Below, piece after piece: positions 3,801 through 41,180 of a stretch of DNA of 64,000 bases (position 1 is its first letter; every line of letters begins with the position of its first letter). This DNA comes from Bilabrum cf. latius (lineage: Eukaryota). Both the position numbers and the translations under genes were made by a program. The notes under the pieces are model-generated. The model was not told the origin of the DNA. It was given only the letters and a program-made list of their open reading frames with translations, and made no database searches. The stretch lies in assembly GCA_965178125.1 (NCBI GenBank), contig OZ237773.1, positions 434,001 through 498,000 on the forward strand. The letters run 5' to 3'.

Positions 3801-4980
3801 GCAGCCTCGCCGGGAATCCCTTGAACCCGTCCCTCTGCGCCTCCATGAGCGTCTCCACCGTCACCTGCACGCGCATGTCCAGCCCGCGGCCCGCACCCGC
3901 CCCCGTGCCCCGAAGGATGGCCCGGAACTGGGACATCACGTCCAGGAGGCCCTTGGGGCACTCTTCCTTGAGCAGCTGTCCGCACTCCCGGGTGAAGTGC
4001 ACTGCGATCTCGATCGAGTCGTCCGTGCCCCCCTCCAGCAGCAGGGCCAGCACCTCGAGCGCAAGCAGCTCGTCCGCCACCCTCTGGTTGGCCAGATGCG
4101 CGATGAAGCGAGACAGCGCCATCGCAACCGTCTTGTTGCTGCGCCTGTAGGCTCGCCTGAAGAGCAGCACCACCCTATGGAGCAGAAGCTCGCCGATCTC
4201 CGGCAGCTTGGTGTTGACTACCGCTGCCAGCGCGGCGTAAATATGCGTGAATCCAGGGGAGGCCATCTGCGCTTTCATGAGGGCGCGGACCAGCAGCCCC
4301 CTGCCGCGGACTAGGTTCAGCTGCAGCAGCTGCGGCAAGATGCTGGCCATGTTGGACACGTTGGCTCGGTTCACCAGGCCGTTGATCCCGCGCCGCAGAC
4401 GCTCCCACCGCACCCGCTGCATCGCCTCTGAGCTCTTGGGCAGCTCCGCGGCCATGGCGCGCTCCTACTGCTTGCGCAAATGCGGAGGCAAGTACACCCC
4501 GCCGGCGCGCCGGATTGTGCCGAGACGCGGCCCGTCCGATGCGGCCATCGAGCTTGCCGCGGCAGCACGGCCAGCTCGCTCGGCCGGTTGTGCTCCCGCA
4601 GTTTCACTAGTTGCGACCTTCTCTTGCATCGGAGCAGAAGGGTCAATTGCTTCTGGGGCAACCTCGCCCTCCTCTTTTTCGTCCGCGCTCGACGCGCTCG
4701 CACCCGCAGCCTGCGCCGGTGCAGAGGACTATGTAGCAGGGTTACCGCCGGTCGCAGCCACATCCTTTGTCGCAGCCGCCCTCTTGGCATTGGAATCGCC
4801 AACATCATCCTCATTGTCCGATTCTGTATCTGTAGCAGTCGCATCCGAGTCAGTATCGCTCCCATCGTCCTCCGATCGCGGGATGTCAGGTTGCTACTCA
4901 TCCTATGCTTCATTAGACGAATTGATCTTTGGCGCATCCGCAGCAGAAGTGGGGGGATTAGACTCTTGTTGATCACTCAT
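898..4980 (-). CDS. CWC22: Pre-mRNA splicing factor CWC22 (MIF4G + MA3 domains, long RS-rich tail), ~1360 aa with TAG=Gln
   Basis: Single frame from ATG 4980 to TGA 900-898. Motifs GGVYLPP, WERLRRGINGLVNRAN, NLVRGRGLL, AQMASPGFTHIYAAL, LRRKIFLTIQSSMDFEEAAHKL, RFAINFYTRIGLG. Eight in-frame TAG (4905, 4896, 4731, 4467, 3771, 1815, 1644, 960). LDLVEADD*ITHE matches the conserved EEDQITH. Confidence 0.93.
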
Positions 4981-19331: not shown

Positions 19332-20552
19332 ATGCGCAGTGCAATAACAACAAGAAATTTGCACCGCAGCTTGTATTTAAAGCTAGCACATAGGCAAGGA
19401 CAGCGTTGCGTCTCGGTATGGGTTTCTCCGAAGGATGAGTGTGTACCAAAAGGTTCGTTTTGTGAGGATCACGTGGCTATCCACCATGATAAGCCACCAG
19501 GGGATGGTAATGCGAATGCTGGCGAAAGGAACAGGTTTGACATCGTTAAGCTGGGAGCCTTCGTGTTTCGGGGGCTGGTGCCAGACGAGGTCTCGAGCGC
19601 GGCCAGTGAGCACGCAATCAACACGATGTCTCGCCGCCGGTACGAAGGCGGGCACTGGGATGGAGTGATCCACGGGTACAAAGAGACCAAGTCGAGCCTG
19701 AAGGCCCTTATTGGAACTCCCATGGCCCACGCACTCCCCGCTCTGCGCGAGATCCAGCCACCGCGCAGCATCCGCCGCATGCAGCCCCAGGCACACGTGC
19801 TGCAGCTCGCCCGGTACGGCCGCATCGACGGCCACGTGGACGCGGTGAAGTTCTGCGGACACACTGTGGCGGGGGTGTGCCTGGGATCGGACGCCGTCAT
19901 GCGCCTGGAGCTGGACGAGTCCACGATCCTCGACACATCACCTGAACGGAAGGGGGCGCTGCTGCCCCTCGGGTGGGAGTACTCGCTGGACGAGGAGGGG
20001 GCGCTGGGGGCGCTGGGTGGGGACACGGGTGCAGCGCATGGCGGTGCAGGACCCAGCTGGGAGGACCTCGCCCCCGGGGCCCGGGACATCGCTCTGTCCA
20101 TGCTCCGATCTATGCCTCCCACGATCGACCTGCTGCTGCCCGCAGGCGGGGGCTACTGCCTCGCGGGCCCCGCCCGGTTTGCCTACAAGCACTCCATTCT
20201 GGAGGACCCAGAGCCAGTAGCTGGCTGTGGGGCAGAAGCACGCGCAGCAGGTGCAGGTGCATCGCAGGGTGGTGCCGCCTAGTCCCCGCTGGGGTGGGAC
20301 TGGGACGTGGGGCGCCCTTTAGACCTGGAGCCGGCTGGGTGCACGGTGGTGGACACGGTGTTTGGGGAGTCGAGGGCGGTGAAACGTGAGAGGAGGAGGA
20401 AAGGGGTCGATGCGGAGGCAAAGGGGGTCGAAGAGGCAGGGGCCCATGGATGGCCAGCCCTCGGTGATCGTCACACCCGCGTGTCACTCATCGTGCGAGA
20501 TGCTCCGCTTGATGAGCTCTCGGGCGAGCCGGGGCCCAACCGGAGGAGATAA
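19332..20552 (+). CDS. 2OG-Fe(II) dioxygenase, AlkB family (ALKBH7-like)
   Basis: Motifs RYEGGHWDGVIHGYKE, IDGHVDAVKFCG (HxD), ARFAYKHSIL. The C-terminal RVSLIVRD motif lies after in-frame TAG 20280-20282. Ends TAA 20550-20552. Start is uncertain. Confidence 0.82.
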
Positions 20553-20850
20553 CACGAAGCGAGGAGATGGGATGCGGTACATTGTATACAAAAATTTAAC
20601 GTGCTGTAGACCATGCCCGAGTGTGTTACCCGAGGGATAATAATCGCAGAATCGTCCAGTTGCGTCACCGGGCACTACCGATGTAAGCCTATGCCAAGAC
20701 AGTCTGGGGGGGCCTGGGATCGGATCAAAGGATCGGATCAGCCGGGACCCCGAAGAGCTTCATTTTGGCGTAATTTGCTAATTTGCGCACCCCTTTGGCC
20801 TCGTGGAGCCGTAGCTTCGCCAAGCAATCTCACTTCATGTCACTGGCAGG

Positions 20851-20915
20851 TCATGTCATGTCATGTCATGTCATGTCATGTCATGTCATGTCATGTCATG
20901 TCATGTCATGTCATG
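20851..20915. repeat. (TCATG)13 microsatellite overlapping the bZIP stop codon
   Basis: 13 perfect pentamer units read directly from the sequence. Confidence 0.95.
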
Positions 20916-23044
20916 GCTCCCTGCCCCCCTGCGCTACCAGCACCACCAGCCGATGACGAGGACGATGATGACGAAGTTGCCACCTGTGCCCCTGCTCCCG
21001 CCCCGGCCCCGGCCCCCGCGGCCTGCCTCTGCCCCTGCCCCTGCCCCTGTTGGGCCTGCTCGCCCACCACCTCGGCCAGCTTGTCCCTGTTCCTCTCCAC
21101 CCACCCCAGGTACCTAATCGCTTGTGCCGGACTCAGCACTGACAGCATGTCGTCCTCCAGCCGCTGCACCTCCGATGTGGCCGCCACTGCCGCGTCCCTA
21201 AACCTCCTGTTGTAGAGGATGGCCTTGCCTAGCCGCTTGATCTCCTGCGGGTGGTCTGGATCCTCACGCAGCTGGTGCAGGCCTCGCCGCAGTCGCTGCG
21301 CCTGGTCCGGGCTCAATCCCAGCTCGCTAACGAAGAGAGACCAGAAGTCGCTCGCGGCCTGCAGCTCGGCCTGGGCGCGAGGGTCGGCGGCCGCCGCGTC
21401 CGCACCACGCGCGCCACCTCGAGTGCTGCCTGCGCCCGCCCTCCTGCCCCCCGCGCCACCGCCGCTGCTTCCGCTGCCTCCCCCCCCTGAGTTCTCGAAG
21501 AACGCCGCGGGCTGCTGGCCCAGCCACGCCAGGAACTTGAGGTGCGGGGGGCACAGGGCCCTCAGCAGCGAATCGAAGTGGAACTCCATCACAGCAAGTC
21601 GCTCCAGCGTGGCGGGCCCAAACCTCTCACGCAGCAGGGGCAGTGCCGCCTCCAGCGCTGCCTGATCGCCAGGGGTGGGCGCGGGGTTGTAGGCCAGCGG
21701 CTCCAAAGCGGCGAGCAGGGCAGCTTTCTGCCTGTCAAGCTCAGCAGGCATGTGCTGCACGTGCTGCAGCCTCAGCTTGTCCACCTCCACGCTCAGCACA
21801 CGCACTCGTTCCTCCAGGGTCTCAAGATACATTTTCTTCCTCCTGCGGCTCTCCCTCGCACTCGCCCGATTCCTCGCCAACCGGTCTTCCCTCCGCCGCT
21901 CCTCCCCTCTGCCCCCGCCACCGGACCGACCGCCGCTGCCGCTACCGCCCCCAGACGACTATTGCTGCTGTTGTTGCTGCTGCTGCTGCGGCTGTGCACT
22001 GGCCCCAGCCCGCGCCCCCGCCCCCCGCTGCCTGTCCCCCCCTCCATCACCACCACCAACTCCGAACCCCCGGCTATTGCCTTCATCCATGCCCCCCATG
22101 CCCCCCATGCCCCCCATGCCCCCCATGCCCCCCGCGAGTGTCGGTGTCCCTGCCAGCCCCGGACGCACTCCAAACGCGTCAGACTGCGCCGTGCCATATC
22201 CCCCCACACTCACGCCTGTTCCCCGGCCGGACATCCCTGGTGCACCCCCCCCTTGCTGCAGAGCACTTGACCCCGCCGCGGGGGGCAGGGGTATGGCACC
22301 CGTGGGCATAGAGAGCGACCCCGTGCCGCTGCCGGGGGTCATGGGCATCCCCCCGGATGAGCCCGCCCCCGCATTCCCCCAGGTGAGCCCCGCCCCTCCC
22401 GCGCTGCCCCCATACCCAGTGGGCACGCTACCGCCGATGGACCCAAGCGCAGAGCCCGGAGCTGAGTATCCCGTTCCCGGTGTGCTGGCGAGGTGCGCCA
22501 AGTGTCCAGACGCAGGGGAAGGATTCGCCCCGTCGATTCGTGCCTACAATGCACCAGCTGGACCTCCTGCACCTCCGAGGTAGGCCGACGTGCCGCTGCC
22601 GCGAGAGTATCCCGAGAACTGGCTCTGGCCGCCCGCACCCATCGGCTGCTGGCCTTGCTCGCTCGACTGCGCGGTGAGTGCAAGAAAATGTATCGGATTG
22701 GAGCGTGAACAGACTGCGCAGCGTCACGGGAGCATCGCGTCCAAGTGACGTCGCGTTGCCACGGGCGCCGTCTGAGCACTGCGCAGACCACTCACGGGGT
22801 TGAAATTACTCGACTGCCCACTTGGTGGCGTGGTGTGGGGCTAGAATACCATACCAGATCCGGAAGGAACGCTCTCTAAGCCTTGGCTATCGCCTGGGGC
22901 ACCCCCGAAATCTCCTAATGACCCGATGCCGCCCCCGTCCAAGCTATCGGCATCAGAGTCTCCTCCAGGGTCGATCCGCCCCCCCTAGCCCTATCCTGAA
23001 ACATCTAGCCCAAAACTGTTGTCCATAGCATCTTCGTCGTGCAT
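20906..23044 (-). CDS. bZIP transcription factor with Gly/Gln-rich N-terminus
   Basis: Basic region RLARNRASARESRRRKKMYLETLEERVRVL. Predicted intron 22795-22667. Five in-frame TAG, one ending a CAG/CAA poly-Q run (21961-21959). The start at ATG 23044 is inferred. Confidence 0.8.
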
Positions 23045-23185
23045 GCTCTCGCAACTTTGTTTGGCGGCATCGGGTGGATCGCCCGCCGCGCATTTTCCGC
23101 CGGCCCGGCGGAACCACCAAATCCGAAGGCCAGAGGTGGGCAATAGAAGTGACAACAAGGCCTAGTAGCCCGCTGCAAGAATACA

Positions 23186-26100
23186 ATGGCAACTGTTGAG
23201 GACCTTATTCGGCAAAACGATAGCCTGCGGTAGGGTAAGACGTAGCCATCCCAAGATGGCAAAGAGGATCTTTAGATTGCGGCACACTAGTTGAAACGTT
23301 TTCGTTTGTTTTACATGGCAAGCATCGCAGCTTGCGAGCGCTTGATCGCTGCCACACAAGCCGAAGGAGTACCAGCCTAGGAGGCTGCAGAAAGCGGGGT
23401 CTAGCCGCCCACCGTGGATCCCACCGTCGTTGAGCTGCAGAGAGTGGTCCAATGCGTGGCCGAGTGCCGACGCTTGGCTGCAACGGACAAGAATTTCAAT
23501 GATTTTTACGAATTTCTACGAGGCAGGATTGAGCAGTATGACCAGAGGAGTTCGAAACCGGTGAAATCGAGCGGGGCCGTCCGGGCCGCGGCGCTCGTGC
23601 GGTGGCGTCGGACCGGCCTGGTATTAGCAAAGGCCCCCCTGCACGTGCAAAGGCCATTGCCAGACATATACGACCCCGAACACGGCTACACGCTGCTGCA
23701 CCATTGCGTCAGCATGCCGAACAACAAAGGTCCCCCCGAATCCGTCGAGGCGCTCCTCATGCGCGGGCCTGGGCTGGGCCCACCTGTCCCTGTCAACGCG
23801 CTGGATGTGGTGAGCTACCGTGTGACGAGTGGAGGACCTGTTAGCAGGGTGCTCTCGTGACGAGTGTGATACCGGCATCCATCTGGTCCTCCATGCCCTC
23901 CCACACCACTGCACCCCCAACCCCCCTCCCACACCACTGCACCCCAACCGCTCTCCCCCCATGCACTGTTGCAACACCTCCAACCATACATCCCCCCCAC
24001 TCGATAGCGTCACGTCCTCGCAGATGGGCCGGACCCCTCTGCTGCTGGCCGCCGAGAAATCCTGCGAGGCATGCATCCTGAGGGTGCTGCTGCGGCATGG
24101 GGCGGACCCCTCGGCCGCGGACCCCGCGGGTGTGACCGTGCTGACACTGCTGCGCGAGAAGGCCAGGCAGTTCCAGGGCAAGGAAGACCCTGACAGGCTG
24201 GGGAACATGGACGACCCGGAGTCGAAAGGGGGGCCAGAGGACGAGAGGATCGCCCAGATCCGCCGGGACATGGAAGAGAAGAACGCGAGGAGGAGAGCGG
24301 AGGTGCAGGACTGCTTCAGGATGGTGTTCAACGCGGCAGAGCGGAAGCGGGCGGGGCTCAAGCCGTGGTACGTGGAGGAGGAAGGCGACGACTAGTACGC
24401 CAGGAATCTGATGGCCGTGCTGGAGTCAGACGAAGGGGAGGTTGCAGCACTGACGGGAGCAGGGGGGGGGGCCGGCGGTGCTGGTCGGGTCCATGTGACG
24501 AGTGCGCTCCCTGCGTCGCTCCGATTGGCTGCGGAAACCCTCGCCGCTCTGGGGCCGTTGTGCGCTGCGGGTCACGAGGCCGATTCTTACATGCATCGCA
24601 TGGCGGTGCTGGCCCGTTTGCTGGATCGGATGGCAGCGGAGGCGGGCCGCATGGGCACTCCGGGGAGGCCCCGGGCCGGGGAGGCGGCAGGGGCGGCGCC
24701 CCCTTCCAGCGCTGACGAGTGCTTCCAGCTGGCCCTTGGTCCGCTGGCAGAGAGCGGCTCCCTGGCATACGACTACTTCGGGGATGCCACGAGGAGCAGG
24801 CCGGAGTTCAGGGCCGCGGTGCAGGAGGCGCTGCGGGCGGCGAGGGGGGCCTGCGGGGGGGAGGAGGGTGCATTGCACGGCGGTGTATGGGGTGCCTTTG
24901 CACTGCGGGCGAGAGGGGCCTGGGTGGGCGGGCTCAGCGTGCTTTCGAGCTGCGTTGGGGAACACGTGGAGCAGGCGGACGGGAGGACCATGCAGACGTG
25001 CGTGGTGGCGCTGGTGGACAGGAGGGGTGTGATGAGTGTGGGCGCGGACACGGTGGGGCGGGTGATGCCCCGGCTGCGATCCGTGCGCGTGCCCATGTTC
25101 ACCTCTGGAGATGAGATCGGCCACCGGACCAGGTCGCTCAAGACTTGCCTCGCTCAGCTGGTGGACCCCATGGGGCACGTGGCTGTGGCGGCGTCTCTGG
25201 GCGTGATGGAGGGGAAGATGGGCAAGGCCGTGGTGAAGCACTGCAATGGCATGATTCGGGGGGCGGCTTCTCGCGGCCAGTGCGCAGCGGCCTGCCTCAA
25301 GGGTGCGAGTGTGGATGACCTGAGGGGCAGCGTGGGGGCCCTGGTGGGGGTGCTGCACGAGGGGATGGGCAAGCTCAGGGGGTCCGAGGGGGCGTCTACG
25401 AGCATCGGCAGGGAGCTGCTAGCGGAGTGCACTGCACTGCAGCGCGAGCTGGAGTCGCTCGATAAGTGCCTCGAGTGCCCCGCGTGCGGCGGGACTGGGA
25501 CATGCGAGTTCGCCGTGCTGGGCACGCTGGCCCGGGTGCAGCGGTCCGCTCGTCACCTCAACAAGGGGTTGAACGAGGCGGATCCGGAGCTCAAACTATC
25601 GGAGGGGTGCAACGAGTGGCAGACTGCTCTAGAGCTGGAAGGCGCCCAGCAAGAGGGGGGTGGAGAAGGGGGAGGAGCAGGGAGGGAAGACAAGGTGCTG
25701 CATGCCGCGCTGGCGCAGGTGGCCAAGAAGAGGAAAGCCCTCATTCCCCTAGGAAGTGTGATGAGTGAGGGGGAGCTGACGGAGGCCATGCGACAGATGC
25801 TGCCATACACAGCGTCACCCGGCGACGATGCACTGCGGGTGGGAATGCTGACCGAGATGTCTGTGCTGTGCGGTCACGGGGTGCAGCTGCCGTCCGGCTA
25901 CCATGCGCCGGGACTGAGGGGACTGGCGGCACAGGCCGTGCTGGCGAAGCTAAAGGCAGACGCGACTGACTGGACCAAGCGTGTGGTAGCTTGTGTGAGG
26001 GAGAATCGAACCGAGGAGGAGAAAGAGCGCAGCCGGATGGACACGATGGCGTGGGAGATGGAGGCAGCGGGGGATGGAGGATTCGAAGAGGCTCAAAGCG

Positions 26101-27368
26101 AAACAACAGCAGCAGGTGCAGGTGCAGGTGCAGGTGCAGCAGCAGCAGCAGCAAGAGCAGGGGCAGGCGCAGGCGCAGAGGCAGCAGCCAACACAGCAGC
26201 AGCAGCAGGGGCATCAGGGGTTCACCCGGCCCCTAAGAGCCCCGTGCCCGCGCCGGCCCCCGCCCCATCCTCGGCCCGCATCGGCATGAGTCTGTTCTCT
26301 CCCACGGCGGACCGCTGGGGCAACCAGCTGGCCCCCCGGGCCACGGAGGGCACCCCCGGCAAGGCATTGCAGTGGATGCGCCGGCGGAGGCACGAGGCAT
26401 CCGCCAGGGCCGTGGCCAGGGACAGGGACCAGGGAACAGTGGCCAGAGGAGGATAGAGAGTCGGGATGGGGGAGGCATCGCCGGGTGTGGCACCGTGGGC
26501 TGCTGCAGCGAATGGTGTATCGCACGGCAGTGCAGTAACGCCTGTGGGGCATGCAGAGGCAGCTGATCCTGGGGGTATGGCGAGTATAGGTGTGACGAGT
26601 GAAGGCACCGCCGCGCCCGACTCTGGTGGTCGGGAGTCAAGCCCGGGATCGGCCAACGACCCGTCGCCGCAGTCGGGCCAGCAGCATCAGCAGCAGCAGC
26701 AGCAGCATCAGCAAGGGCGAGAGCAGGAGCTGCCCTCCGGAGAGTAGGAGGTGCATGCCAGGCGGGTGCTCTCCTTCGGGCCCCCTGTGACGAGTGGGGG
26801 TGACAGCAGCGGCGGTCCTCCTCTCATGGGCAGCGGTTCCGCAACAGGGCTATCTCGAGGGCGCCGCGCAGCAAGGCCCCGGTACAGTGCAGCGCCAGTT
26901 CCCGCGACGGGAAGTCAGGCGGCAGTGGCCTCCGCATTGGGGCAGCAACATGCAGACGGAGGAAACGACAAAGAGGAAGAGGAGCAAGCGGCAGTGGCCT
27001 CGGCATTGGGGCAGCAACAGGCAGACGGAGGAAACGACAAAGAGGAAGAGGAGCAAGCGGTAGTGCCAGGACCAGTGCCGGTTGGAACACCAGACGAGGC
27101 GGACGAAGCGGAGCAGGCAGCTTCATCTTCGTTTTTTGCGCAGGAGCTGGGCTTGGATGGAGAGCCAGGGCCTGGGGCAGGGGCTGCTGCGGCAGGGGCA
27201 GTGGCATCGGATGGGACAGGGGAAGGGGAAGGGGATGCCGACTCTGGGGCCGCCGCAGCATCCGGGGCAGGGGAGGGTGGCAGTGGGCAGGCATCTGCAG
27301 CTGGGGCGGCGGATCCTGCTGCAGGGGAGGGAGAGGGAGACGGGTGGGACGATGATTTTGATCTGTGA
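23186..27368 (+). CDS. Large ankyrin-repeat-containing protein with low-complexity C-terminus
   Basis: Introns 23235-23330 and 23810-24023. Ankyrin-like GYTLLHHC, NALDV/MGRTPLLLAA..LLRHGADP. Track ORFs at 23829, 24411, 26466 and 26751 are one frame separated only by TAG (6 in total). TGA 27366-27368. Confidence 0.75.
26918..27060 (+). repeat. 69-bp coding tandem duplication (AAVASALGQQxADGGNDKEEEEQ x2)
   Basis: Two near-identical units visible in both DNA and protein. Confidence 0.85.
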
Positions 27369-27572
27369 GCGCAAGCATGTGCCAGAGTCCAGTTGCCTTC
27401 GTTGATCCATTCCGCTCGATATACAAAATGGCCTGTGCCCATGCACACCACTTGTGGCGAGCCAGTGGCCCGGCACTGTGGCCGCCGGGCTGGGGGGGAT
27501 GTGACGACTCGGAGGGCCGTGCGAACCGGCCCATCGATCGACCGAAATCCAGGCCACAGGCCGCGCGGTCGG

Positions 27573-29879
27573 ATGGAGGCTATTTCTAACGTCGGTCTAT
27601 GCGACGATCTGATTTTAGCAAGGGCGCTAGCGACAGTACGTCTCACGTGAGTCTTTGCCGGAGCAGAATTATGGAGCTTCAGCGTTCGACCGGATCCATC
27701 ACCTCTAGGCTGTTTCGTCCCTACGCCCTAACGCAGGCTGGCTTCCATGAAGAGAAGCGGCAGAACCATTGGTGATGTGTGGGAGTCGACCGTGGACCAG
27801 CAGGAGGCCAAGATAGCCGTGGTCTTCCACCGCAGCCAGTACTCCTTCCGTGCGCTCGACGCAGGGGCCAACCGCATCGCGACTTGGGCTGTCCGTGAAA
27901 TGAGGCTGCAGCGAGGAGATACTGCGTGCTTGATGATGTCAAATAGGCCCGAATTTCTCATGACGTGGCTGGGCCTGTGCAAGATCGGGGTGGGTGTGGC
28001 TTTCATCAACACCAATCAGACCGGCAAGGTTCTCCGGCACAGCCTTAAGCTCGCCACTGGGCGGGTCATCATCCACGACGAGGCCATGCGTCCGGCACTT
28101 GACGACATTGACGATTCCATCCGCGCGATGGGCATGCAGAGGGCCCTGTTGGGCGGCCCACTCCAGCTGTATCGCACCGAAGCAGCCGAGGTCACGTCAG
28201 ACGTGGCCTACCTCGCCAAGCCGCAGGACGCTCCCACCACCGGCATCGTGGGATCGGGCCGCAACGCGTTCTTCGTGGCGCCGGCGAGGCCTCACCCCAG
28301 GGACAGGGCCAGGGCTGCGGGAGAGGGCGGGGACAGTTCCGGCTCCGGATCCGCCTTCTCCCCGGCCGTGGACCCCAGCCCCTACCGGCGCCCGGTGGAG
28401 ATCGACGTGCTGCGGGGCATCGCGGCGTGTCCCGACGCGCGCCCGTCCAGGGTATTGCGTGAGGGGCTGCAGCTGGAGGACAGGTTCGCGCTGGTGTACA
28501 CCTCTGGTACGACGGGCCTGCCCAAGGCGGCTGTCATCACGCACGGGCGGATGTTCAACGCCGGGTGTCTGTTCTCCACAGTGTACGGGGTCCGCAGCAC
28601 GGACAGGATCTACACCGTGCTGCCTCTGTACCACTCCGCGGGCGGCCTGGTGGGCTCTGGCATGATGCTGTACATGGGAGCCACCATGGTCATGCGGGAG
28701 AAGTTCTCCGCCACGAGCTTCTGGTCCGACTGCTGCGAGCACAGGTGCACTGTCGTGCAGTACATCGGCGAGCTGTGCAGGTACCTGCTGCTGGCCAAGC
28801 CGCACCCGCTGGAGAGAAGGCACAGCGTGAGGCTGGCTGTGGGGAACGGTCTTCGGCCGGACGTGTGGGGGCCGTTCCAGGACAGGTTCGGCATACCGGA
28901 GGTGGGGGAGTTCTATGCATCCACGGAGGGGAACGCGGCTCTCTTCAACTGGTGCAGGGACAGGAGGGCGCGGGGGGCCGTGGGCCGGATGGGGGCGGTC
29001 TCGAGGTCGCTGGGCATCATGCCCCTGGTCAAGTTCGACGAGGAGACCGAGGAACCGGTCAGGGGGCCCGACGGCAGGTGCGTGAGGTGCGGGCCGGGGG
29101 AGCCTGGGGAGCTGCTGGGGCTGATTGCCGCCGGTGACCCCACTCGGGAGTTTAAGGGGTACCTGGGGAACAAAGAGGGGACGGCCAAGAAGATCCTGAG
29201 GGGGGTGTTCAGGCCAGGGGACTCGTACTTTCGGACGGGGGACCTGCTGAAGAGGGATGAGGCTGGGTATTTTTACTTTCTGGACAGGATCGGGGACACG
29301 TTCCGGTGGAAGGGGGAGAACGTGGCGACGACAGAGGTGGCGGAGGCGTTCGCGGGCGTCCAGGGGCTCGCGGAGGCGATCGTGTACGGGGTGCTGGTGC
29401 CGGGGCACGACGGCAGGGCGGGCATGGCCTCTCTGGTGCTGGACGCGCCTGCACCCAGGGAGGGGGGCAAGGGGGCCGGGGGCAAGCCGCGGGCATGGAC
29501 GCACGCAGAGGTGGAGCGCGTGCTTGACATGAAGGCCCTCTCCGATGTGCTCAGGAAGAGGCTGCCGGCCTATGCCGTGCCTGCCTTCCTGAGGGTGCTG
29601 CCTGCCGCACCCACCACGGGGACGTTCAAGCACCAGAAAGTGGCCCTCCGAAAACAGGGGTATGACGAGTGCGGGGGTGACCCCGTGTACCGGATGCGGG
29701 GGGCAGTGGAGAGGCTCCAGCCGGGGGAGACTCCGGGGTTCGAGAGAATGATCCCAAGTGGGGGGCAGGGGCCAGCCAAGGGAGGGGCAGGGACCGGCAA
29801 GGCAACTGCCACAGCTGCGTCTGGGACAGGGAGTGGGATGGTGGCAAAGACGGGCGCCTTCTCTGTGGCCAAATTGTGA
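27573..29879 (+). CDS. Very-long-chain acyl-CoA synthetase / fatty acid transport protein (FATP, SLC27 family)
   Basis: AMP-binding motif YTSGTTGLPKAA, EFYASTEGN, and the FATP signature GDSYFRTGDLL..YFYFLDRIGDTFRWKGENVATTEV. First exon 27573-27646, intron 27647-27736 with a CTAAC branch point. Confidence 0.93.
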
Positions 29880-29965
29880 TGAACTGCAGTGTTGCGCACG
29901 GCTAAAACCCCCACACGTCGATCCATTCCCGTCCTTCTACTCCGTCTGTTGCATTCAAATCAACA

Positions 29966-31120
29966 TCAAGTCTCCATCGGAGCGGCCCCCTTGGAGCCCC
30001 CACTGGCGGCCACTCCGCTCTCACCAGCACCACTCGAGGCCGCCGGTGCACTCGATGCTCCTGCTTTGGCTGTTTCACCTCTACCTCTACCCGTGGCACC
30101 CCCACCTCCGTCGTCGTCACACCTGGAGCCGCACACTGGGCACCTGCTCGTCTTGGCCTCAAACACGGCCAGACACACCGTGCACACGAAGCCCATGTCC
30201 AGCCGGCGGCCAGTGTCGAAGCTGGCAGGCCTCTGGTCCAGCACAGAGGCACGGGGCAGTGCCAGGGCGGGGCGCATGGCGGCGGGGGAGAGGAACAGGG
30301 TCAGCATCGTCTGGAGGAGGGCTGTGGGGGCGGTCTCTGGCGGAGTGGTTGAGGATGATGATGATGACGATGACGATGGAGGGGAGGAGGAGGAGGAGGA
30401 GGCAGCCCCGGCGGCTCCCAGGATCGATACCGGGTCCACGGCGTGGTGAAGGCCCCTCGTCACACCCGCGACCTAGGCGTTGAATGGAGACGCTTCTTCG
30501 GCTCCGGATCCGACGGGGGAACTGCCCCTCGCAGCTGCTCCGGGGGATATCCCGCCCGTGCCGGCTGTAGCTGCCTTGCTCGGTCTTGTGGGAGGGCCCA
30601 GGGAAAGGCTGTCCACCATGATCCCCATCCTCTCTGCGCAAAAAGCTGCGTTCATGAGTGCCACGAACTCGCTGGCGGGACATCCGCCAAAGTGCACCTC
30701 AAGCACTCTCGCGGCGAGCGAAGACGATGAGCCGCTCGATTCGCGGCACCGACGAGCGAACCCCACCGCGCGAATCAGCGCCGCTGAAAGTCCAGGGCGA
30801 TCATAATCCATGCTTAAATCTGCTTCGGATCCCTCGGCTGACCCCAGCGCAAGCCTCGCAGCATCCTTCACAACAGCCGCCAACTTCCCAGACGGCTGCG
30901 CGAACACCATCCTCTCGTCTACACCAGGGCCTGGGAGCAGTTGCTCCACGGAGTCTCCATCGTATGCAATCAATGAGACACCATTGTACCGATTGATTGT
31001 TTTAAATGCGCAGGCGAACGATGACAGAACAGCTGCAAGGTCGACCCGTTCGGCGAACCAAGCTAGGCTGGAGCTTGGCCTGACATCGAGCAGCAGAACC
31101 AGCAACTCTGGAGCAGACAT
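29966..31120 (-). CDS. TFB4: TFIIH subunit Tfb4/p34 (vWA-like domain + C4 zinc finger)
   Basis: LSAALIRAV, FVALMNAAFCAERMGIMVD, NA*VAGVTRGLH (compare family LQQACDITGG), C-terminal GFVCTVCLAVF..CPVC. One TAG at 30475-30473; ends TGA. Confidence 0.85.
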
Positions 31121-31237
31121 GGGGCCAAATTATGCTGGCATTCCAAGTCACGTAGGCTAGATGTGAGTACAATCCGCCACGCACCTTGAAGTCTTGTCCC
31201 GGTTTGCCGCTCTCATAGCAGTTGATCGACCGCGGAG

Positions 31238-33522
31238 ATGACAGTACACTCTGTTTTGTCCCGCAGCATGGACCAGTACCCAGTAAGGCCAGAAGGGATA
31301 GTTCCAGACGTAGGTGGTCTGTGCTTCTGCTCCCGATTGGACTCCACGGGACGACTTTGTCTCACTGGAAACCGCGACGGCTTCGTTCGGCTCTACCGGA
31401 GGGTCGGCATCGAAGACTCCGAGTTTAGACTCATCGCCAAAGTTGTATTGTCTGACTGCAACGATGATTCCGAGCCAGAGCCGGGAGCAGAGGTGGTTCG
31501 TGTTTGCTTCTTGACAGGCGATCAACTCAGGATTGCCGCAGTGAACACAGAGGGGTTGCTGACGGTTTACTAGCTCCAGACGCGCGACGGGACGCACACA
31601 TTCGAGGCTCTATCAACTGTTCACTTGGAGGATCAGTGCTACGTGCTTCGCACGCTCATGTACCGGAGCTCCTCCGGAGAGTAGCGGCCGGGGCTGCTGG
31701 TCGCAGACGCCTGTGACATGCACGTGCTCGACCAAGAGGAGCTGGCCCGCGGCAGAACCTCGCTGACCCGGATCAGGGTCCCCTGGGGCGGCGAACGGAT
31801 GGGATTACTGGTGGTGGCCGGCTGTGACCGCGTCTTGCCGGGGCGACTGGACGGTGCGTGGCCCGGGGGACCCAACTTGAAGGCGCGGCCGATGGAATCG
31901 GGGGAGCATGCAAGCGGACGAGGTGCTCTGGTTGGGGAAGCGTCTGTTCCCATGCAGGGGCGGGGTGGCGGCAGTGGGCCGGCAGGGCAGGCAAGCATGG
32001 TGCACGACAGCGGTGAGGATGACGACGGGGTGTAGGAGGTGGAGATGGAAGAGGAGGAGGAGGATGAGGAGGAGGATGAGGAGGTGGTGGAGGTGGAGGA
32101 GCAAGAGCAGGACAGGCGGTACCTTGCGGGATAGGATGATGGCGACGAGCAAGACAGCGAGGAGGTTACCGAGGTGTACGATGCAGAGGAAGAGGAAGAG
32201 GAAGAGGAAGAGGAAGAGGAAGAGGGGGCACGATACAGGGCACCCAGCCATCCAGGCAGGGGTGGTGCATCGGGGGTGCTAGAGGAAGGGGAAATACCAC
32301 GGTCGGAAGATGAGGAGGAAGAAGGGGATGAAGAGGAGGATGAAGAGGATGAAGAGGAAGAGGAAGACGAGGATGAAGATGAGTCTCCCGCGATGAATGA
32401 CCCACCCTCAGTGTTCTGCGCGGACGTGCACCCAACGGATAGTTCCCTGGTGCTGGCAGGCTACGAGAAAGGCTATCTCGCACTCATGCGGGTGCTGCCT
32501 GCAGGGGACCTCGAGGGGAGTGCAGGGGACCTCGAGGGGAGTGCAGGGGACCTCGAGGGGAGTGCAGGGGACCTCGAGGGGAGTGTAGGGGACCTCGAGG
32601 GGGGTGTAGGGGACCTCGAGGGGGGTGTAGGGGACCTCGAGGGGAGTGCAGGGGACCTCGAGGGGAGTGTAGGGGACCTCGAGGGGAGTGTAGGGGCGGT
32701 AGGGGGCAGTGGGAGTGCAGTGCACCCTGCGCATGCTGCTTTAATTGACGCTGCGGCGAAGATGGAGGGCACAGGTGGGACCAGGGCAGGGGGGAAAGTC
32801 GAGCACGAAGGTGAAGATAGAGATGAGTAGGGTCAGGTGGAGTCTGCAAGGGGGGAGTCTAGCGATGCGCCCGCGCTGCCCGTCAGTAGCACCCGGGTGC
32901 TGCAGTGCACTGCACGCAGCAACGGGTTCCGGGCCGACTGCCCGGATGCAGGCAAGCTGGCGTGGCGGCATGGCGGCAGGGCAGCTCTCCTGCCCTGCAG
33001 TAGGGGACAGGGGGTGGCCTGGCAGGCGCATGAGCGCGCGGTTACTGCGGTAACGTTCCTGCCCCCCACCGGGGGGTCAGGGGTGAACCCCTAGGGATTG
33101 CTGGCTGTGTCCGCGGATCTGTTTGGGATGATCAAGCTATGGGACGTAAGTCGGCCCACAGTTCCGCTGTTCCGGTTGCAACTGTTCTCCGGCATTATCG
33201 ACAGCCTTTTTTTCCTAGACTCTTCCCCTGGGGTGCTTTGGGCACAGTCTAGGCGGGGGGAGATAGCCGGGATTGACCTGGTCAAAGCGAGAGAAGGTGC
33301 CACGGACCTTGGTGTGCCTCGGTTCACGGGGTAGCAGGCGTTGGACCAGGCCAGGCACAGGAGTAACCTGGAGGTGCCTGCCCCCTTGCAGCCGCAGGCG
33401 CTGCCACCTGCCAGGTATGTGGTTCCCTTGCTGGAGGAAGGGGTGCTGGTGCGGGCGTGGGAGCTGTCAGGGGGCACGATTACGGATACTAGCGTGCAAC
33501 GGGTGGGAATCAACTAGAATAG

Positions 33523-33568
<46 letters not shown>

Positions 33569-34399
33569 GGTCAAAGCGGCCGATAGGTCGTTGTGCTGAG
33601 CTGCGCCCCTGCATCCTCGCCCGCCTTTTCCACCCCGGGGGCTCCCCAGTTCCTGGACGAGGAGGGGTACTACCTGGGGAAGGCCCCTCTGGTGAGCAGG
33701 CCGGGGAGGGGCAGGAACGTGGCGGCGAGCTCCATGCTCTTCGGGGCCGAGCAGCTGCTCGAGTCCGTTGGTCGCAAATCGACAGGACCCGACCGGAGGG
33801 CACTGCTGCCGTGCCTGGTGCAGGGCACTGCAGTGTCTCTGGCAGCGCAAGAGGGGCGGGCGCTCACAATGCGGCGAGCGAGCGACGTCGGCACCCGTGT
33901 TAGTCTGCTGGTGGCGAGTGTGTTCGGGGTCGACGGGCCGGGGATGCCTGGGCTGCGTGCCTCGTGTGCTGCTTGGCTCGCGGGGCACATGGACAGCGAG
34001 AGCGGAGGCTAGGCTGGATGTGACGGCGGGGAGGTTGTGGGAGCTGCGGGCATTCAAAGTGTGTCCGAGCCAGGGACTGGACTCGGTGTGACGAGCGTTG
34101 ATCACGGAGCCGGCGGCAGTGGCCCATGGCGTGAATGGCTCCTGAGGAACAAGACGGCGGCTTGGCTCGGGGTTATGGGTGTGATGAGTGCGGTCAACCA
34201 GGGGTTGTCGTGGCAAGTGGTCAATCACGTGGGGCAGGGGGGCAGCCTGCCTGGGCTGCCACTCGACTGGGAGGCGCTGTGGGATGCGGGGGCTGGCGCC
34301 TCGGCACCTGGAAATGGGGCCGCGGGTGATCGGTCCGAAGGACAAGGGGGGGCAATCGAAAGTGCTGGTGCAAGCAAGAGGAGGAGGGTGTCTTCCTGA
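31238..34399 (+). CDS. WD40-like repeat protein with acidic insertions, ~1050 aa
   Basis: Seven track ORFs share one frame and are joined across 10 TAG codons with no TAA or TGA until 34397. WD-like segments VFCADVHP..LVLAGYEKG and AHERAVTAVTF..SADLFGMIKLWDV. Start is uncertain. Confidence 0.7.
32501..32695 (+). repeat. 21-bp coding minisatellite, ~9 units, encoding (A/V)GDLEG(S/G)
   Basis: Repeated GYAGGGGACCTCGAGGGGRGT units. Confidence 0.93.
33524..33565 (+). repeat. (AGC)14 microsatellite encoding poly-Ser
   Basis: Read directly; in frame with the WD40-like gene. Confidence 0.9.
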
Positions 34400-34547
34400 G
34401 TGATGGGGGGCCGTTGATCTCGGGTCAATCAAGTCGGTGACTGGCCAGTGGCGGCTCGTGTACGTTCTGTTCTAGCTTGATCGATTGGCCATGAACGGGT
34501 GGATCAAGTATGTTCTGTTGCAAGTGCAAGTCTGCAAACAACGCGGG

Positions 34548-35187
34548 TCACGAGCCCCCCCCTTGTCCCTCGGGCTTGTCTGCTTCCTTCAGCGCAGCCA
34601 CGTTGAACTCACCGAGAGCAATACCGAACAAATGGATCGAGTTCAGGGCAGTGACACCCTCGTCGCCGTCGCTTTCCAAGTAAATGAACAACTTGCGAAC
34701 CCTCTTGAAGCTATCTACGAAACCATCGAGCTTGATTCGCTTCCCAAACGAGGTCTCCTCCAGTTCGAAGCTCTGAGACGGTTTCATGTCCTCCACGTCG
34801 TCAAAATCCAAGCTTGGCAGGTCGCAATACAAGCTAAGCTTGTTCGGACGCATGTCTTCTTCGTCGCAGGTAATCATGATCTCCTTCAGCTGAATTGGTA
34901 CTTTCGTGTGGATCTCTAGAATGAGCTGCTCGTCGACGTCAGACTGGACAAATTTCTCGGGAGAATCGCTGAACAAGTGCGCTACCGGGTGATCAGGAGA
35001 TACTGCGCAATACATGTACGCTACTAGCTTGGGAGATGAATTTGCACACATTCTAATCCACGCAGATGCTCAGAATCGATCGCTTGAAGGTCTAACCATT
35101 GATACCGGAGCTAGCTTTCTTATCGATGAGCCCACTCAAATCCTACAATGCACTTCGGCTCTCGTCGGGTGCTTGCGCGGCTGCCAT
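34548..35187 (-). CDS. PITH-domain protein
   Basis: Exon 1 MAAAQAPDESRSAL*DLSGLIDKKASSGIN, one intron, then VQSDVDEQLILEIHT, RPNKLSLY, LDFDDVEDMKPSQ, FKRVRKLFIY. TAG at 35145-35143. Confidence 0.82.
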
Positions 35188-35339
35188 GTTTACTTTGATT
35201 GCAGTATCTATGCGGATTTCACTTGAATTTTCCAGGTCGGATTGCAACTCCCTCTCGGCGCCGCGCCTCGACTATTGCGGAACTAGATGCACACGTTGTC
35301 GAGCGGGCGGAGGGCGACCACTCACGGCAATAGCGAGCT

Positions 35340-38300
35340 TCAGTCACTCAGACCAAGCTACTAGAGGCGCTTCTTAGTCGCCTCAACTTCATCCTTCCAG
35401 GCGTCCCGATCGGCACTTGCGAGCACCAGCGACTTCTCCACCGCACCCTCGAACCCGGTGCCCTGCACCTGTAACGACTCGGAGTCGATAGTCTCCATGA
35501 CGTGCCCCCCTCCGGCACGCGCAGGCGAGCTGACCGCCGGCTACCGAGTGGGCGCAGGGGGCGCGAGCACGCCTCTCTTGGGCTGAGTCCGAGTGGCGAT
35601 GGTGGTGCTATTGGCCGGGGGGGAGGAGGAAGAGGCAGGGCCCATGGCAGTGGCAGCCGATGGTCCCGGGGACGGGCTGGATCTTGGGCGTGTACCCTGG
35701 CCCTGGCTTCGGCTGGTCGCGGGCAGCGGCTGGGCCCCTGCGCGGGAGGAGAGGGGATGGTCGATGAAACCAGCATCAGGTGGTGATGACGAGTGCGACC
35801 CCCTGCCCCCTGCTCCTCCCAACAGGCCCCTCTGGCTGGGCGTCGTGATCGTAGCCCCCCCTCCCATTGCACCACCATGTCCCATCGCTGCTCCCGGTGA
35901 GCCCGCAGATGGGCCCCGGGTATCCCCTGTGTCCCCAGTCCCGATGCCAGAGCTCTTGCTCTTGCTCTGAGTCTCCTGAGCAAGAGCGCTCCCGGCCATC
36001 TCCTTGCTCCTACCCGCATCCCGCAGCCCCCTCTGCGCTTGCCGTTCCCGCAGCCTCTGCTTGTGCTGCACCCCCGTCTCTTTCTCGGGCACCACCTCGT
36101 CCTCCTCCTGCACAAGGAGAGCATCCCTAAACAGCGCGATCCTCTCTGGCAGCAGGTACGGAGCCCTCCTCAGCCCGTGTTCCCGGTACAGCTCGTGGTA
36201 GGGCCTGCCCCCCGTCTCGTCAAAGTCGGCCGAGGGACTGTCGGCGTACAGCACGAACCAGTCGTTGCCCAGCATGAGCTCGATGAACCGCTGGTGGACA
36301 CGCTCGCAGAGAGACACCACCGCATGCCCGGGGGCACCCATGGCCCGCAAGGGGTACCTCACTCCGGGCAAGATGCATCCCGTCCCGCACCAGCAATCCT
36401 TTGCTTTGCTACTCTTCCAAGATGCGTACGCCAGCGCGATCCATGCCACCAGCACCAAGAAGATGAGTGCGATCGCATCGGATGAAGTGGTCCTCGCCTC
36501 CCCCGCGCTGGCGAGCACCTTGGACATGACCGCATTCACCAGCAGAGAGCCCATCATGGTCAGCTCCAGCACGCGGATCAGCTGGGCCCCGCTCTTCTGC
36601 ATGGCAAACACGTGCTCCACGCAGTACCGATCCACGTAGTACCGGATCAAGAGACCCGCCGCGACCACCAGGTACAGGGGGGGCATTGCGGGGCCGAAAG
36701 CGGCCGCCACCAGCACGGTCCGCATCAGACTCGCGCACTTCTCCGCTAGAATGTACTCGGGCGGCCGCCCGTGCTCCTTGAGGAGCGTCCTGGACTTGCC
36801 GAGGATCATGCCCAGCAGCACCATGGCCAAATGCTGCGGCTGGATCAGGTTGAGCACGGGGGGCACGACCGCCTCGGCGAGGGCGATTCGCAGCGCGAAC
36901 GCACCCGCCTGCCTGAACCAGTCCTGCCTGTACCCGTTGCTGCTGTCTGCAGGGGGCCCGAACGCGGCGAGCAGAGAGGCCGCCACGGTGATGGTCACCT
37001 GGGTGAGGAATACCTTCATGAACAGAGAGCGGCTCTTGCTGCCAGTCGAGTAGTGGCCCTCGTAATCGGACACGCCCCTGAAGATGTACGCGGCCAGGTA
37101 GTTGAGTCCCAGCACGCTCGTGGCCACGATCAGGCCCACGATCCCGTCGCGCCCCTGTAGAGTGATGGTCAGGGCCGCGAAGAACAGGCCAGAGGCAAGC
37201 AGGCAGGCAAACACGGTGGACCCCGAGCATGCGATTAGCTGCCTGGAAAGGTCAGTGTCCAGCGAGCCCCAGAGCACCTCCTCGGGCTCGGGGGCGGCCT
37301 GCACCACCAACTGCTTGCCCCTGAACCGCAGGTCGATGGATTCCGGGTCAGTCCCCGCTGCGATGCTCCCGCGCCTGCCGTCAGAGGAAGCGGGGGCCGA
37401 GCCGGGCGCAGGGGCAATGTCGTTGGTGGGCGTCCCTGCCACCACTCGATTGGCCCCGGCTGCGTCCCCACCATCCGCTCGTTGTTGCTAGCCTGAGCCG
37501 CCGCTTGCAAGTTGCTTGGCCTCTTGCTTGGCTCTTGCCGCGGCCTGCTTGAAGGATTTGACGGCCACCCACTTGAGATCTGCGTAGGTGAACGTCACGA
37601 ATGCCCTGGAGTACTCGAACGTGGCGAGGTTCCTCTTCCGCTGGGAGATGCGCCAGTCCAGGTACGACATGAACTGCACCAGCGTGGCCTTGCTGAGGCA
37701 CAGCATGGGGATCACGGGAATTCGCACCGCCAGCAGCATGCACGACTCGCACTGCCCGAAGCGGGGGGCTCCCTTCCGGACGGCCTCTCTCCATGGGAGG
37801 TAATCGATCTCGATCATGGCGGGGTCCAGCTCCACGGGGGCATGCAGTGGAGAGGAGGCAAGGGGACACGGGCAGGGGCAGGGGCAGGCACACCGGCTGT
37901 TGCATGGACAGCAGGGCACTCCATCCGACACGAGTTGGCCCCAATCGCTTCGTGGGGCAGCAGGAGCGGGCAGCCCGTCGTCCTCGAGGTTTCTACGAGA
38001 CCCGCCCGGAGCAGATTCTTCCGGCGTCGAGGAAGCCCTCGTGTCCTGCGAGCGGCTTCCCTTCCGCCGCTGCTCCGGGGCGACCGCTGGCACAGCTCCT
38101 GTCCCTGTCCCTGTCCCCGTTCCCGCCCCTGCAACAGCGGCTGGGTTGACGACCTCAACCTCACGCCGCTGATCTCCCCCGCTGACCCTTTCCTTTTCTT
38201 GTTTCCTCTGCCTCTCCGCCCTCTTGTCGAACTCCTCCGACTCGCAGTGCATGCGGATGCGGTCCACAGCAACCCTCCTGCTGTGCTGCAGTCGCAGGAG

Positions 38301-39878
38301 CTCCTCGTCCTTGGTGGCAGGCGCGATGAAATGCACGGGCCCGACCTTCTCGAAGTGCTCGTACAGCGCCTTGGTGTCGTGCGTGGTCTCCAGCCGGCTG
38401 TCCAGCCTCAGGTCAGGGAGGTTGTCCACGAACACGCTAAAGTCCCCCGGCGTGATGTGCTTATCGTCGAACTCGCCCTCAGAGGCCTTGCGCCGGCGGT
38501 ACACGAAGAGCACGCCCACCAGCAGCACCGCAGTCGCCAGAGAGTTGAAGGCAGCCACGTCGGCGCGCGGGCCCTGACCCCCCGCGCACTGCTCCCCAGC
38601 ATGCCCCGGCTCGCAGTAGCAGATCCCCGGGGTGTACGGCCGGTACGCGCTGGTGGGCCCCATGGCAGCCCCGGTGTCCGGGTCCACGGGCGAGGGGAGG
38701 CAGATTCCGTGCTGCCCGCAGTGGGTGAGGCTTCCCGCCGTCCCAGGGACGCGGAGGAACTGCGCGGGACACGCGGCGCGCTTGCACCCCAGCATGCGTC
38801 CGGTTGCAACCGACAGCTCCGAGTGCGAGTAGAGTTGGGAGAGGGCTCCATGCTGCGCCACCTCGCTGCTCGATTGGTTGCTGGTGGCGGTCCCTGCCTG
38901 CAGCTGCCGTCTGTTTCCAGACGCGGCACCTCCTGCAGGCAGGGCGGCGGTCTCATTTGCATCGATCGAGTCTACAGTCCCGCTCTCCTCTTTGTACTCG
39001 CACGCGGCCCCGTATGTCCCGGGGTCGCACTCGCAGAAGGCAAAGAGGGGCTGCTCTGCGACGGTGCGACGGATCCGGTCTGCCAGCGTGGCCTCCGTGC
39101 CTGGGTCATGCTCGCGCACCCTCCTGAAGCGCACCCTGCAGAATCCCCGCCCGCTGCACACGTCGTCTCTGCGCCTCGTCACGTCTACTTTGTCGGCGGC
39201 GAGGTCGCGTACCTGGTACGGGGGCTGGCACCACCCTGGAACGGAGACGGGGGAATCGCTGCTGCTTGACGAACTCGAGGCAGCAGGGCTTTCTCCAGCG
39301 GTAGAGTTGGTCGCGTCTTCGAATTCGCAGGCAGGGCCGCTGAATCCAGGCATGCACGCGCACACGGAGTCGAATGTGGCGCACACAGGAGCCTGGTCTC
39401 CGGATTTAAATGATGCTTGCTCGCACATTATGCTCCCAGACTGCTCGGATAAGTTTCCAGCGAGGCCTGCACTCGTGGCCCAACCCGAGCACGTGCGAGC
39501 GCAGAATCCCCGCCCGTTGCAGTTGCTCGGACATCCTGGCGTCCAGCCGAACTTGGCAGTATTTGCCATCGAGGAGCGAACAGCCATGCCAGCAATACTA
39601 AACATGTAGTCGTAGCGGTCCCCTCGGGCAAAAAAGAAGGTGTTTGGCATTACAACGATGCCAAGTAGAAGGAAAATGACAGTGAAGTACCGGACAAAAG
39701 ACAGATACAGCACAGTTCCCATCCCCAGGTACCCCTGCTCCTTGATTTCATCCGTGGTTGGCCCGAAACGGACACTTCTCTGCATAAATCGAATAGGATT
39801 TGCCATGCATAGCCTTGCCCTTTCACCAAATAGGCACTCTCGCAACCACTCCCGTTGCGACAAGCCGCCCTTCTCCAT
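35340..39878 (-). CDS. OSCA/TMEM63(CSC1)-like multi-pass channel with extracellular EGF-like repeats, ~1512 aa
   Basis: Motifs GTVLYLSFVRYF, ITPGDFSVFVDNLP, RAFVTF, VQAAPEPEEVLWGSL and multiple TM helices. Cys repeats such as CxCxPGFSGPACE. TAG at 37490, 35543 and a tandem TAG-TAG near the end; TGA 35342-35340. Confidence 0.78.
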
Positions 39879-40058
39879 CCTAACAATTCAGTGCGGTTCG
39901 ATTCCGTATAAATTTTTATTTTATATCAATGTGGCAGGACATGAGATGACATCAACTAGGTAATCAGTTGAGGGGAGCACCAACCGACGGAACCAATTCT
40001 TTGTAAGGTGCGTTTATGAGGGAAGACGAACACCAAGCCCCACCTTTGGAGTGGAACG

Positions 40059-41180
40059 ATGGCCGCTGCTGACGCAAAGTACCCGCCAATCAAGTGGGCC
40101 CAGCGCAAGGATTCGCTGTGGGTGACCTTTGATATCCAGGACTCCGATGATGTCGAGATCAACCTTGCCGAGAGCACGCTGAAGTTCAAGTGAGATTACT
40201 CGGATCTGCGAGCGATTCTCCAGCCATCCAGGGGCTCAATGGGTGACATGACCACCAGAAGAGCGTCTTCGGCAATAACTTGATTGAGTTTATGAGACTG
40301 CTGTGATTCAAATCAGGCATGTTCCCATTGGCAACTTGCACAAAAGCTGGTTCACACCCTAGCTGCCACGCGTCACTACTGCTGCACCACTTCTTTACTT
40401 CACACATGGCCTCCCACCATCAAGCAGGTGCAAGACTAGCGACGATACTTTCGATGTGACCATGGATCTGTGGGGAGAGGTTGACCCCGAGGATGAGGAG
40501 AGCAAGTACGACGTTACGCCCCGCGAGATTGTCTTTCACATCATGAAGAAAGACAAGGAGGCCGATCATTGGCCATACTTGCTGAAGGACAAGAGCATCA
40601 GCAAGGCGCACTGTGCCGTCGACTGGGACAGGTATATGGATCAGGACGACGAGGAGGAGGCCGGTGCGGGCGGTGCTGGATTCGACATGTCCCAGTTCGG
40701 CGGCGGAGGCATGGTGAGAACGGCTGCAAGCAGCGTGCCTTGAGGATCGCACCAACGTCCTTGCAATCATTGCTCCGATGCTCATATCTCTGTTATTCTT
40801 TCACGCAGAACTTCGGCGGTATGGGCGGCGCTGGTGGCATGCCCGGTGGCATGGGTGGCATGCCCGGCATGGGCGGCATGGGCGGCGGTGCGGGCGGCAT
40901 GGGCGGCATGGACATCCAGCAGCTCATGGCTCAGATGGGCCAGGGTGGCGCTGGTGGCATGCCCGGTATGGGCGGCATGGGCGGCATGCCCGGCATGGGT
41001 GGCGACGCTGGCGGCATGCCCGATCTGAGCAGCCTGGGCCTCGGCGAGGACGGGGACAGCGACGATGCAGGGGACGGCCTGGACGACCTGGACGATGACG
41101 AGGACGACGGAGTCAGCCCGGATGCCTCCAAGGCTGCCCCGGACGCATCGGGAGATGACGACATCGACGAGCCAGAGTAA
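40059..41180 (+). CDS. Hsp90 co-chaperone p23 (CS domain, GM-rich and acidic tail)
   Basis: PPIKWAQRKDSLWVT, HWPYLLKDK, VDWDRYMDQDDEE. Introns 40190-40427 and 40714-40808. Ends TAA 41178-41180. Confidence 0.92.

Follow-up and report, generated by a model that had tools for sequence, protein, structure and literature searches.

The window, i.e., the whole stretch of DNA analysed here, comprises 64,000 nucleotides of the Bilabrum cf. latius genome assembly (GenBank GCA_965178125.1; contig OZ237773.1, positions 434,001 to 498,000 of the forward strand), and our subject is the meaning of the codons TAG and TAA in the genes that it carries. With a G+C content of 63%, this 64-kb window contains compact eukaryotic nuclear genes, which we identified by a Pfam scan of 37 chosen open reading frames (ORFs) together with a search of the Protein Data Bank (PDB). 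Pfam matches revealed a CWC22-like splicing factor (MIF4G and MA3 domains), an eIF3e-like PCI protein, Tfb4, a bZIP factor, a p23-like CS-domain protein, an AP-complex sigma chain, a PITH protein, ATP10, a LYR protein, a POT transporter, an OSCA/RSN1-like channel, an AAA ATPase, an RNA ligase, bulb-type lectins and an AMP-binding acyl-CoA synthetase, and a PDB match added an ALKBH7-like dioxygenase. ATP10, the LYR protein and the ALKBH7-like protein are of mitochondrial type. Read together, the coding frames of these genes point with good confidence to a nuclear code corresponding to NCBI table 15, in which TAG encodes glutamine (Gln) and both TAA and TGA terminate translation.

Six GT..AG introns of 90-344 nt, whose donors read GTGAG or GTAAG and whose acceptors read CAG, are skipped by contigs of three public sequencing runs and retained in a DNA-like run. 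None of the three runs is labelled as RNA, which we presume them to be, and contigs were compared with the window over positions 12500-32499.

TAG as a predicted glutamine codon

When all three standard stop codons were applied, the window held 42 ORFs with a length of 300 codons or more; reading through TAG raised this number to 72 and extended the longest ORFs from 800 to 1,516 codons. In-frame TAG (n = 55) is spread over 19 of the 27 terminal ORFs that we modelled, including those of the conserved genes for CWC22 (eight codons), the AAA ATPase (seven), the POT transporter (three) and Tfb4 (one), and none of the modelled ORFs requires TAG as a terminator.

The residues found opposite TAG suggest which amino acid it specifies. 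At the three informative positions of the two bulb-lectin paralogues, TAG faces Gln twice and histidine once, and one TAG of the second paralogue matches the first residue, Gln, of a Q-G-D-G-N stretch that recurs in the protein. One TAG of the CWC22 gene lies opposite a Gln that is common to PDB chains 8xi2_V and 8c6j_H, while a second lies opposite methionine within an unconserved stretch; in the POT transporter, TAG occupies a variable position at which three PDB chains have methionine. In the bZIP gene, a run of eight Gln is closed by TAG. Across the small sample of eight comparisons, the opposing residue was Gln in four (two in the lectins, one in CWC22 and one between the window and the metagenome contig L001, described below). 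TAG is thus read as sense, its most likely meaning being glutamine. The OSCA/RSN1-like gene carries two consecutive in-frame TAG codons (35363-35358, minus strand) seven codons ahead of its TGA, which may represent Gln-Gln or the relic of a former stop.

Table 1. Features of the window that bear on the assignment of TAG and TAA, with positions counted from the first letter of the window.
Feature	Position	Strand	Details
CWC22-like splicing factor	898..4980	-	Pfam MIF4G + MA3; eight in-frame TAG; TGA end
Bulb-lectin paralogue 1	9931..11610	+	Pfam B_lectin; three in-frame TAG; TAG opposite CAG (Gln) in paralogue
Orphan ORF P0001	12882..13187	-	Acidic; in-frame TAA at 13031-13029
Bulb-lectin paralogue 2	15269..16948	+	Two in-frame TAG
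ALKBH7-like 2OG-Fe(II) dioxygenase	19332..20552	+	One in-frame TAG (20283-20285); TAA end
TAA stop of ALKBH7-like gene	20550..20552	+	
Acyl-CoA synthetase (FATP-like)	27747..29879	+	Pfam AMP-binding, 1.7e-47; ends ...SVAKL + TGA TGA
p23/Sba1-like co-chaperone	40059..41180	+	Three exons predicted from sequence alone: 40059-40189, about 40428-40713, 40809-41180
TAA stop of p23 gene	41178..41180	+	Directly after acidic tail ...DDIDEPE

TAA as a probable rare terminator

TGA closes 25 of the 27 modelled ORFs and TAA the other two, namely the ALKBH7-like and p23 reading frames. This tally closely matches the 24 TGA and two TAA among 26 genes given in the initial annotation, and both of its TAA ends are present, each closing the reading frame for which it was named. 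Two of the 27 ORFs are duplicated eIF3e-like fragments, which leaves 23 TGA and two TAA ends that are independent. Within the 15,401 in-frame codons of the same ORFs, TAG occurs 55 times and TAA never, alongside 448 CAG and 92 CAA codons. If the ratio of TAA to TAG tracked that of CAA to CAG, 11.3 TAA codons would be expected (P(0) = 1.2e-5; P(<=1) = 1.5e-4), and the off-frame ratio of TAA to TAG (116:336) would predict still more. Outside the ORFs, TAA is by no means rare: TAA, TAG and TGA occur there at 4.9, 7.7 and 13.9 per kb per strand, respectively. Among two-fold pairs, A-ending codons make up approximately 17%.

ORFs that are bounded by TAA cannot contain it, and we controlled for this circularity by listing every in-frame TAA in ORFs that were delimited solely by TGA and were 250 codons or longer. 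Of the listed triplets that fall in frame with recognised genes, five are situated either upstream of the initial ATG or within introns (5005, 27729, 31130, 49072 and 60535) and one is the end of the ALKBH7-like gene (20550). Another, at 46157, follows non-coding-like sequence and precedes a poorly modelled ORF (46160-47455, plus strand) that encodes an EGF-like single-pass membrane protein. This ORF lacks an in-frame start codon and a signal peptide; the TAA ahead of it adjoins a likely acceptor site, and one or more 5' exons lie outside the model. The p23 TAA closes an exon of 123 codons and therefore falls below the length threshold of the list. None of the ORFs that match Pfam or the PDB contains an in-frame TAA. 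The earlier statement that TAA is absent from intact genes although CAA is used thus stands for the 15,401 codons counted; it did not include an in-frame TAA in an orphan ORF (Table 1), which is discussed below. The sole candidate for an internal TAA at a Gln position is the orphan-ORF triplet, whose ORF lacks homologues to align and which is not seen opposite a conserved Gln. A second in-frame TGA within six codons of the stop was seen at nine of 25 ends and in nine of 50 control frames, which is not a significant enrichment (Fisher P = 0.10).

The ALKBH7-like ORF matches the human ALKBH7 structures 4qkb and 4qkd in the PDB (E 2e-18) and, weakly, the Pfam family 2OG-FeII_Oxy_2. A word-based search retrieved two relatives of the protein, both distant (P0002 and P0003), which finish three residues past an R-D/T-A motif; the ALKBH7-like ORF continues for 13 more residues, up to ...NRRR, before its TAA, and the next in-frame TGA lies 371 codons further on, in a frame that runs antisense through the convergent bZIP gene. 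A contig of run X1, which skips GT..AG introns elsewhere, spans 19365-20577 unchanged and without a joint, with the in-frame TAG and the TAA both as in the DNA. The end of this contig at 20577 and the lower depth in the next bin were not taken as evidence of a transcript end. Immediately downstream of the bZIP stop lies a microsatellite of the pentanucleotide CATGA (about 20841-20905), which places TGA in all three frames and at which the contigs of every run break.

In the predicted p23 gene, exon 1 gives a weak CS-domain match, GTGAG occurs as donor at both 40190 and 40714, a CAG acceptor finishes at 40808, and the frame closes. The last predicted exon encodes a Gly/Met-rich linker and the acidic tail that directly precedes the TAA, a position given in the initial annotation and confirmed here. 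Four homologues (P0011-P0014) are likewise built of a CS domain, a Gly/Met-rich linker and an acidic tail with a similar end, and P0012 and P0013 end in ...PDLE; a word-based search with the tail alone gave distant or low-complexity matches. The TAA forms part of a GTAAG sequence (41177-41181), for which we tried 11 candidate acceptors, none giving a credible exon. The stop of the gene convergent on p23 is 176 nt away.

A third TAA end is found outside the window. Scanning with the acyl-CoA synthetase recovered two metagenome contigs (L001 and L002; G+C content 57%) that encode proteins of 78-79% identity, have the upstream neighbour gene in common with the window and show the same TAG habit. 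In L001, the orthologue (79% identity) contains two in-frame TAG codons, one of them opposite a Gln of the window, and ends in ...TTAKL followed by TAA, where the window has ...SVAKL followed by TGA TGA. The last three residues, AKL, are identical, and beyond the TAA the sequence is A+T-rich and non-coding-looking, and another TAA follows after 18 codons. We take the AKL end to fit a peroxisomal signal of type 1, a kind that functions solely when it stands at the very C-terminus. TAG as a sense codon and TAA as a predicted stop are thus found together in one gene of a relative. Convergent on the synthetase in L001 is a ubiquitin gene (3195-2962, minus strand; ...LRLRGGQ followed by TGA), whereas in the window the convergent gene is Tfb4, and synteny is broken on that side. 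In the metagenome loci that are more distant (L003-L026), the TAG habit is absent (no TAG in 23 loci and one in L007), and these loci were not used.

Taken together, these observations suggest that TAA is most likely kept as a rare second stop beside the dominant TGA. That TAG alone, and not both TAG and TAA, encodes Gln is favoured because 55 internal TAG stand against no TAA in the modelled ORFs, because both TAA ends of the window agree with the C-termini of homologues, and because the L001 gene has internal TAG and a TAA at a conserved C-terminus. The assignment made in the initial annotation, with TAG as Gln, TAA and TGA as stops and no ciliate-type reading of both TAG and TAA as Gln, is upheld on the same three grounds.

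Proposed mechanism and alternative readings

Under the table 15 assignment, UAG would be an ordinary Gln codon, UGA the main terminator and UAA a rare terminator that never specifies an amino acid. A tRNA whose anticodon is CUA can decode UAG alone, and eRF1 must then distinguish UAA from UAG. Such a tRNA-Gln(CUA), a single mutation away from tRNA-Gln(CUG), would read only UAG and would spare UAA because C34 cannot pair with A; without any tRNA bearing a UUA anticodon, UAA would stay free for eRF1. The release factor itself would either have lost its affinity for UAG or be outcompeted there. The initial annotation held that the code requires a release factor that reads UAA and UGA but not UAG, which is too strong, since a tRNA-Gln(CUA) outcompeting eRF1 would also suffice. 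The strong G+C bias (63%) would account for the large excess of TGA over TAA at gene ends. ARAGORN predicted no tRNA genes in the 64-kb window, and an eRF1 gene is absent from it.

Several observations weigh against this assignment. Only three genes are seen to end in TAA when the two of the window are counted together with the one of the relative. At the p23 end, a TGA follows nine codons past the TAA and a nine-residue extension is compatible with the sequence, and the GTAAG that contains this TAA matches the donor consensus of this genome. In the four TAG comparisons that did not yield Gln, the opposing residues are histidine, methionine, methionine and arginine, all at non-conserved positions. 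Finally, the in-frame TAA of the orphan ORF is flanked on both sides by coding-like sequence in the same frame, with codon log-odds of 0.75 and 0.49 bits per codon, values reached by 0% and 0.1%, respectively, of 6,412 off-frame windows. Some doubt about the code remains because of this triplet.

The G+C content at third codon positions of the orphan ORF is 0.85 and 0.82 on the two sides of its TAA, and the region is covered by runs with spliced contigs, with a minus-strand intron (14332-14675) upstream. Neither Pfam nor the PDB offers a match to the ORF. A search against 1.84 billion representatives brought up a single true relative, P0005, and three low-complexity matches; P0005, a predicted protein of 91 residues encoded on a 17-kb contig, stops exactly where the orphan ORF has TAA, and just upstream of the orphan ORF the window is frame-shifted relative to P0005. 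An intron hiding the TAA is unlikely, its GTATAA donor and its acceptor being poor in comparison with the six supported introns. A possible likeness of P0001 to the flexible region of ATG3 was also set aside: the window contains no catalytic-site motif, and HMMER gave no ATG3-like match.

The orphan ORF is located in a segmental duplication (8387-19138), which also contains the two bulb-lectin genes (83% protein identity) and the eIF3e-like PCI gene, whose 3' part occurs three times (8507-9607, 11918-12475 and 17252-18109, the last within a full gene that extends to 19138). Within this zone, DNA-like and complementary DNA (cDNA)-like contigs alike depart from the window at 12903 and 12956, and the loose contig letters at 12903 have no source nearby in the window. 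Change of TAG to TAA is a single transition, i.e., from a Gln codon to a stop in this code. The orphan-ORF TAA may be the stop of a true short protein, a shared nonsense change or a translated TAA.

The last of these possibilities would be expected if UAA were ambiguous, terminating translation at gene ends and sometimes being translated or read through internally, as in Condylostoma and karyorelict ciliates. This could accommodate two TAA gene ends together with one internal TAA in a coding-like ORF, and the coincident end of P0005 indicates that the site is more than a chance feature peculiar to this assembly. Nevertheless, the case concerns a single site in an orphan, fast-changing ORF of a segmentally duplicated zone, where contigs diverge and the frame is shifted relative to P0005, and the site is accounted for equally well by a genuine short protein or by a nonsense codon that both have in common. 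We therefore regard an ambiguous UAA as improbable.

We consider it more improbable still that the window uses the ciliate-type code of NCBI table 6, with both TAG and TAA encoding Gln, TGA as the sole stop and TAA very rare through G+C bias. Such a code would be in keeping with the 25 of 27 ORFs closed by TGA, the TGA shortly after the p23 TAA and the coding-like sequence around the orphan-ORF TAA. It is opposed by the tolerance for A-ending Gln codons seen in the CAA count, which sets the expectation of 11.3 internal TAA against none found; even with the orphan ORF counted in, P(<=1) is 1.5e-4. Readthrough of the ALKBH7-like TAA would add 371 codons antisense to the bZIP gene, and in the L001 orthologue the TAA falls exactly at the conserved ...AKL, ahead of A+T-rich sequence and a further TAA. 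That TAG alone is Gln, with TAA and TGA as stops, is supported as the better fit to all the evidence tested.

An unchanged code, with the in-frame TAG arising from pseudogenes, unrecognised introns or assembly errors, is a general possibility in a window that does contain duplicated gene fragments, yet it is scarcely credible given the presence of TAG in 19 of 27 ORFs including conserved CWC22, POT, AAA ATPase and Tfb4, the unaltered ALKBH7-like TAG in a contig of a run with spliced contigs, the Gln residues opposite TAG in paralogues, orthologues and PDB homologues, and the same habit in L001 and L002.

One further feature lies apart from these genes. Just past the AAA ATPase gene, a 57-nt unit is repeated in tandem about ten times (about 58900-59480), which in two frames of the translation shows as a recurrent block of 19 residues.

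Relation to known genetic codes

UAA and UAG nearly always switch meaning jointly, and each lineage that splits them tests why. The window is most likely a fresh example of a rare code type that few other eukaryotes are known to use, and its distinctive trait is termination dominated by TGA rather than TAA. In the literature searched, we found no report of a code with UAG alone as Gln in a G+C-rich, aerobic eukaryote. It is conceivable, and we propose it tentatively, that the window represents an independent and unreported origin of such a code in a G+C-rich, aerobic, intron-poor lineage that is also present in environmental metagenomes (L001 and L002), the first in which UGA and not UAA carries nearly all termination, and maybe a host type suited to giant viruses with TAG as Gln. 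If this G+C-rich lineage ends its genes almost only with UGA and retains UAA as a rare stop, the splitting of UAA from UAG would not depend on heavy use of UAA, and a differently evolved pair of eRF1 and tRNA-Gln(CUA) would become available to compare with others and to draw on in genetic-code expansion. The lineage would also be a candidate host type for those giant viruses. Gene callers applied to this genome and its relatives would need table 15, and not table 1 or table 6.

Many ciliates, hexamitid diplomonads and some ulvophycean green algae use table 6, in which UAA and UAG change together. The window resembles them in reading a UAR stop codon as Gln and differs in that UAA is absent from 15,401 codons and ends genes.

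In the fornicate Iotanema spirale, as predicted for the window, UAG alone has been reassigned to Gln and UAA still terminates; a tRNA-Gln(CUA) unable to read UAA, together with a changed eRF1, was proposed there, i.e., the same mechanism as the one considered here (PMC5304391). Iotanema is an anaerobic metamonad known from its transcriptome, whereas the window encodes mitochondrial-type proteins, has a G+C content of 63% and uses TGA for nearly all stops. The ciliates Hartmannula sinica, Trochilia petrani and Protocruzia tuzeti use table 15, the code predicted for the window; their UAG codons are internal, at conserved Gln positions, as in the window, and are unused as stops (PMC11687900), a role that no modelled ORF of the window requires of TAG. 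UAA is the preferred stop in Hartmannula and Trochilia and is found at 93.5-100% of the aligned C-termini of the table 15 ciliates (PMC11687900), in contrast to two of 27 ORF ends in the window, where TGA accounts for the other 25. Compared with these ciliates, the introns of the window are ordinary GT..AG introns of 90-344 nt.

UAG and UAA are also decoupled in the rhizarian exLh and in phyllopharyngean ciliates from TARA data, in which UAA and UGA are stops and UAG encodes leucine (PMC5304391; PMC11687900) and not Gln, the residue paired with TAG at conserved positions of the window, and UAG is read as leucine or serine in a few other lineages (PMC11687900). Outside cellular genomes, code 15, with TAG as Gln and TAA and TGA as stops, has been described in crAss-like phages (PMC9523058) and in giant-virus genomes (PMC13524828). 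The predicted code of the window is the same as that of these phages and giant viruses; the window itself is cellular DNA, with spliceosomal introns and with genes for splicing, translation-initiation and transcription factors.

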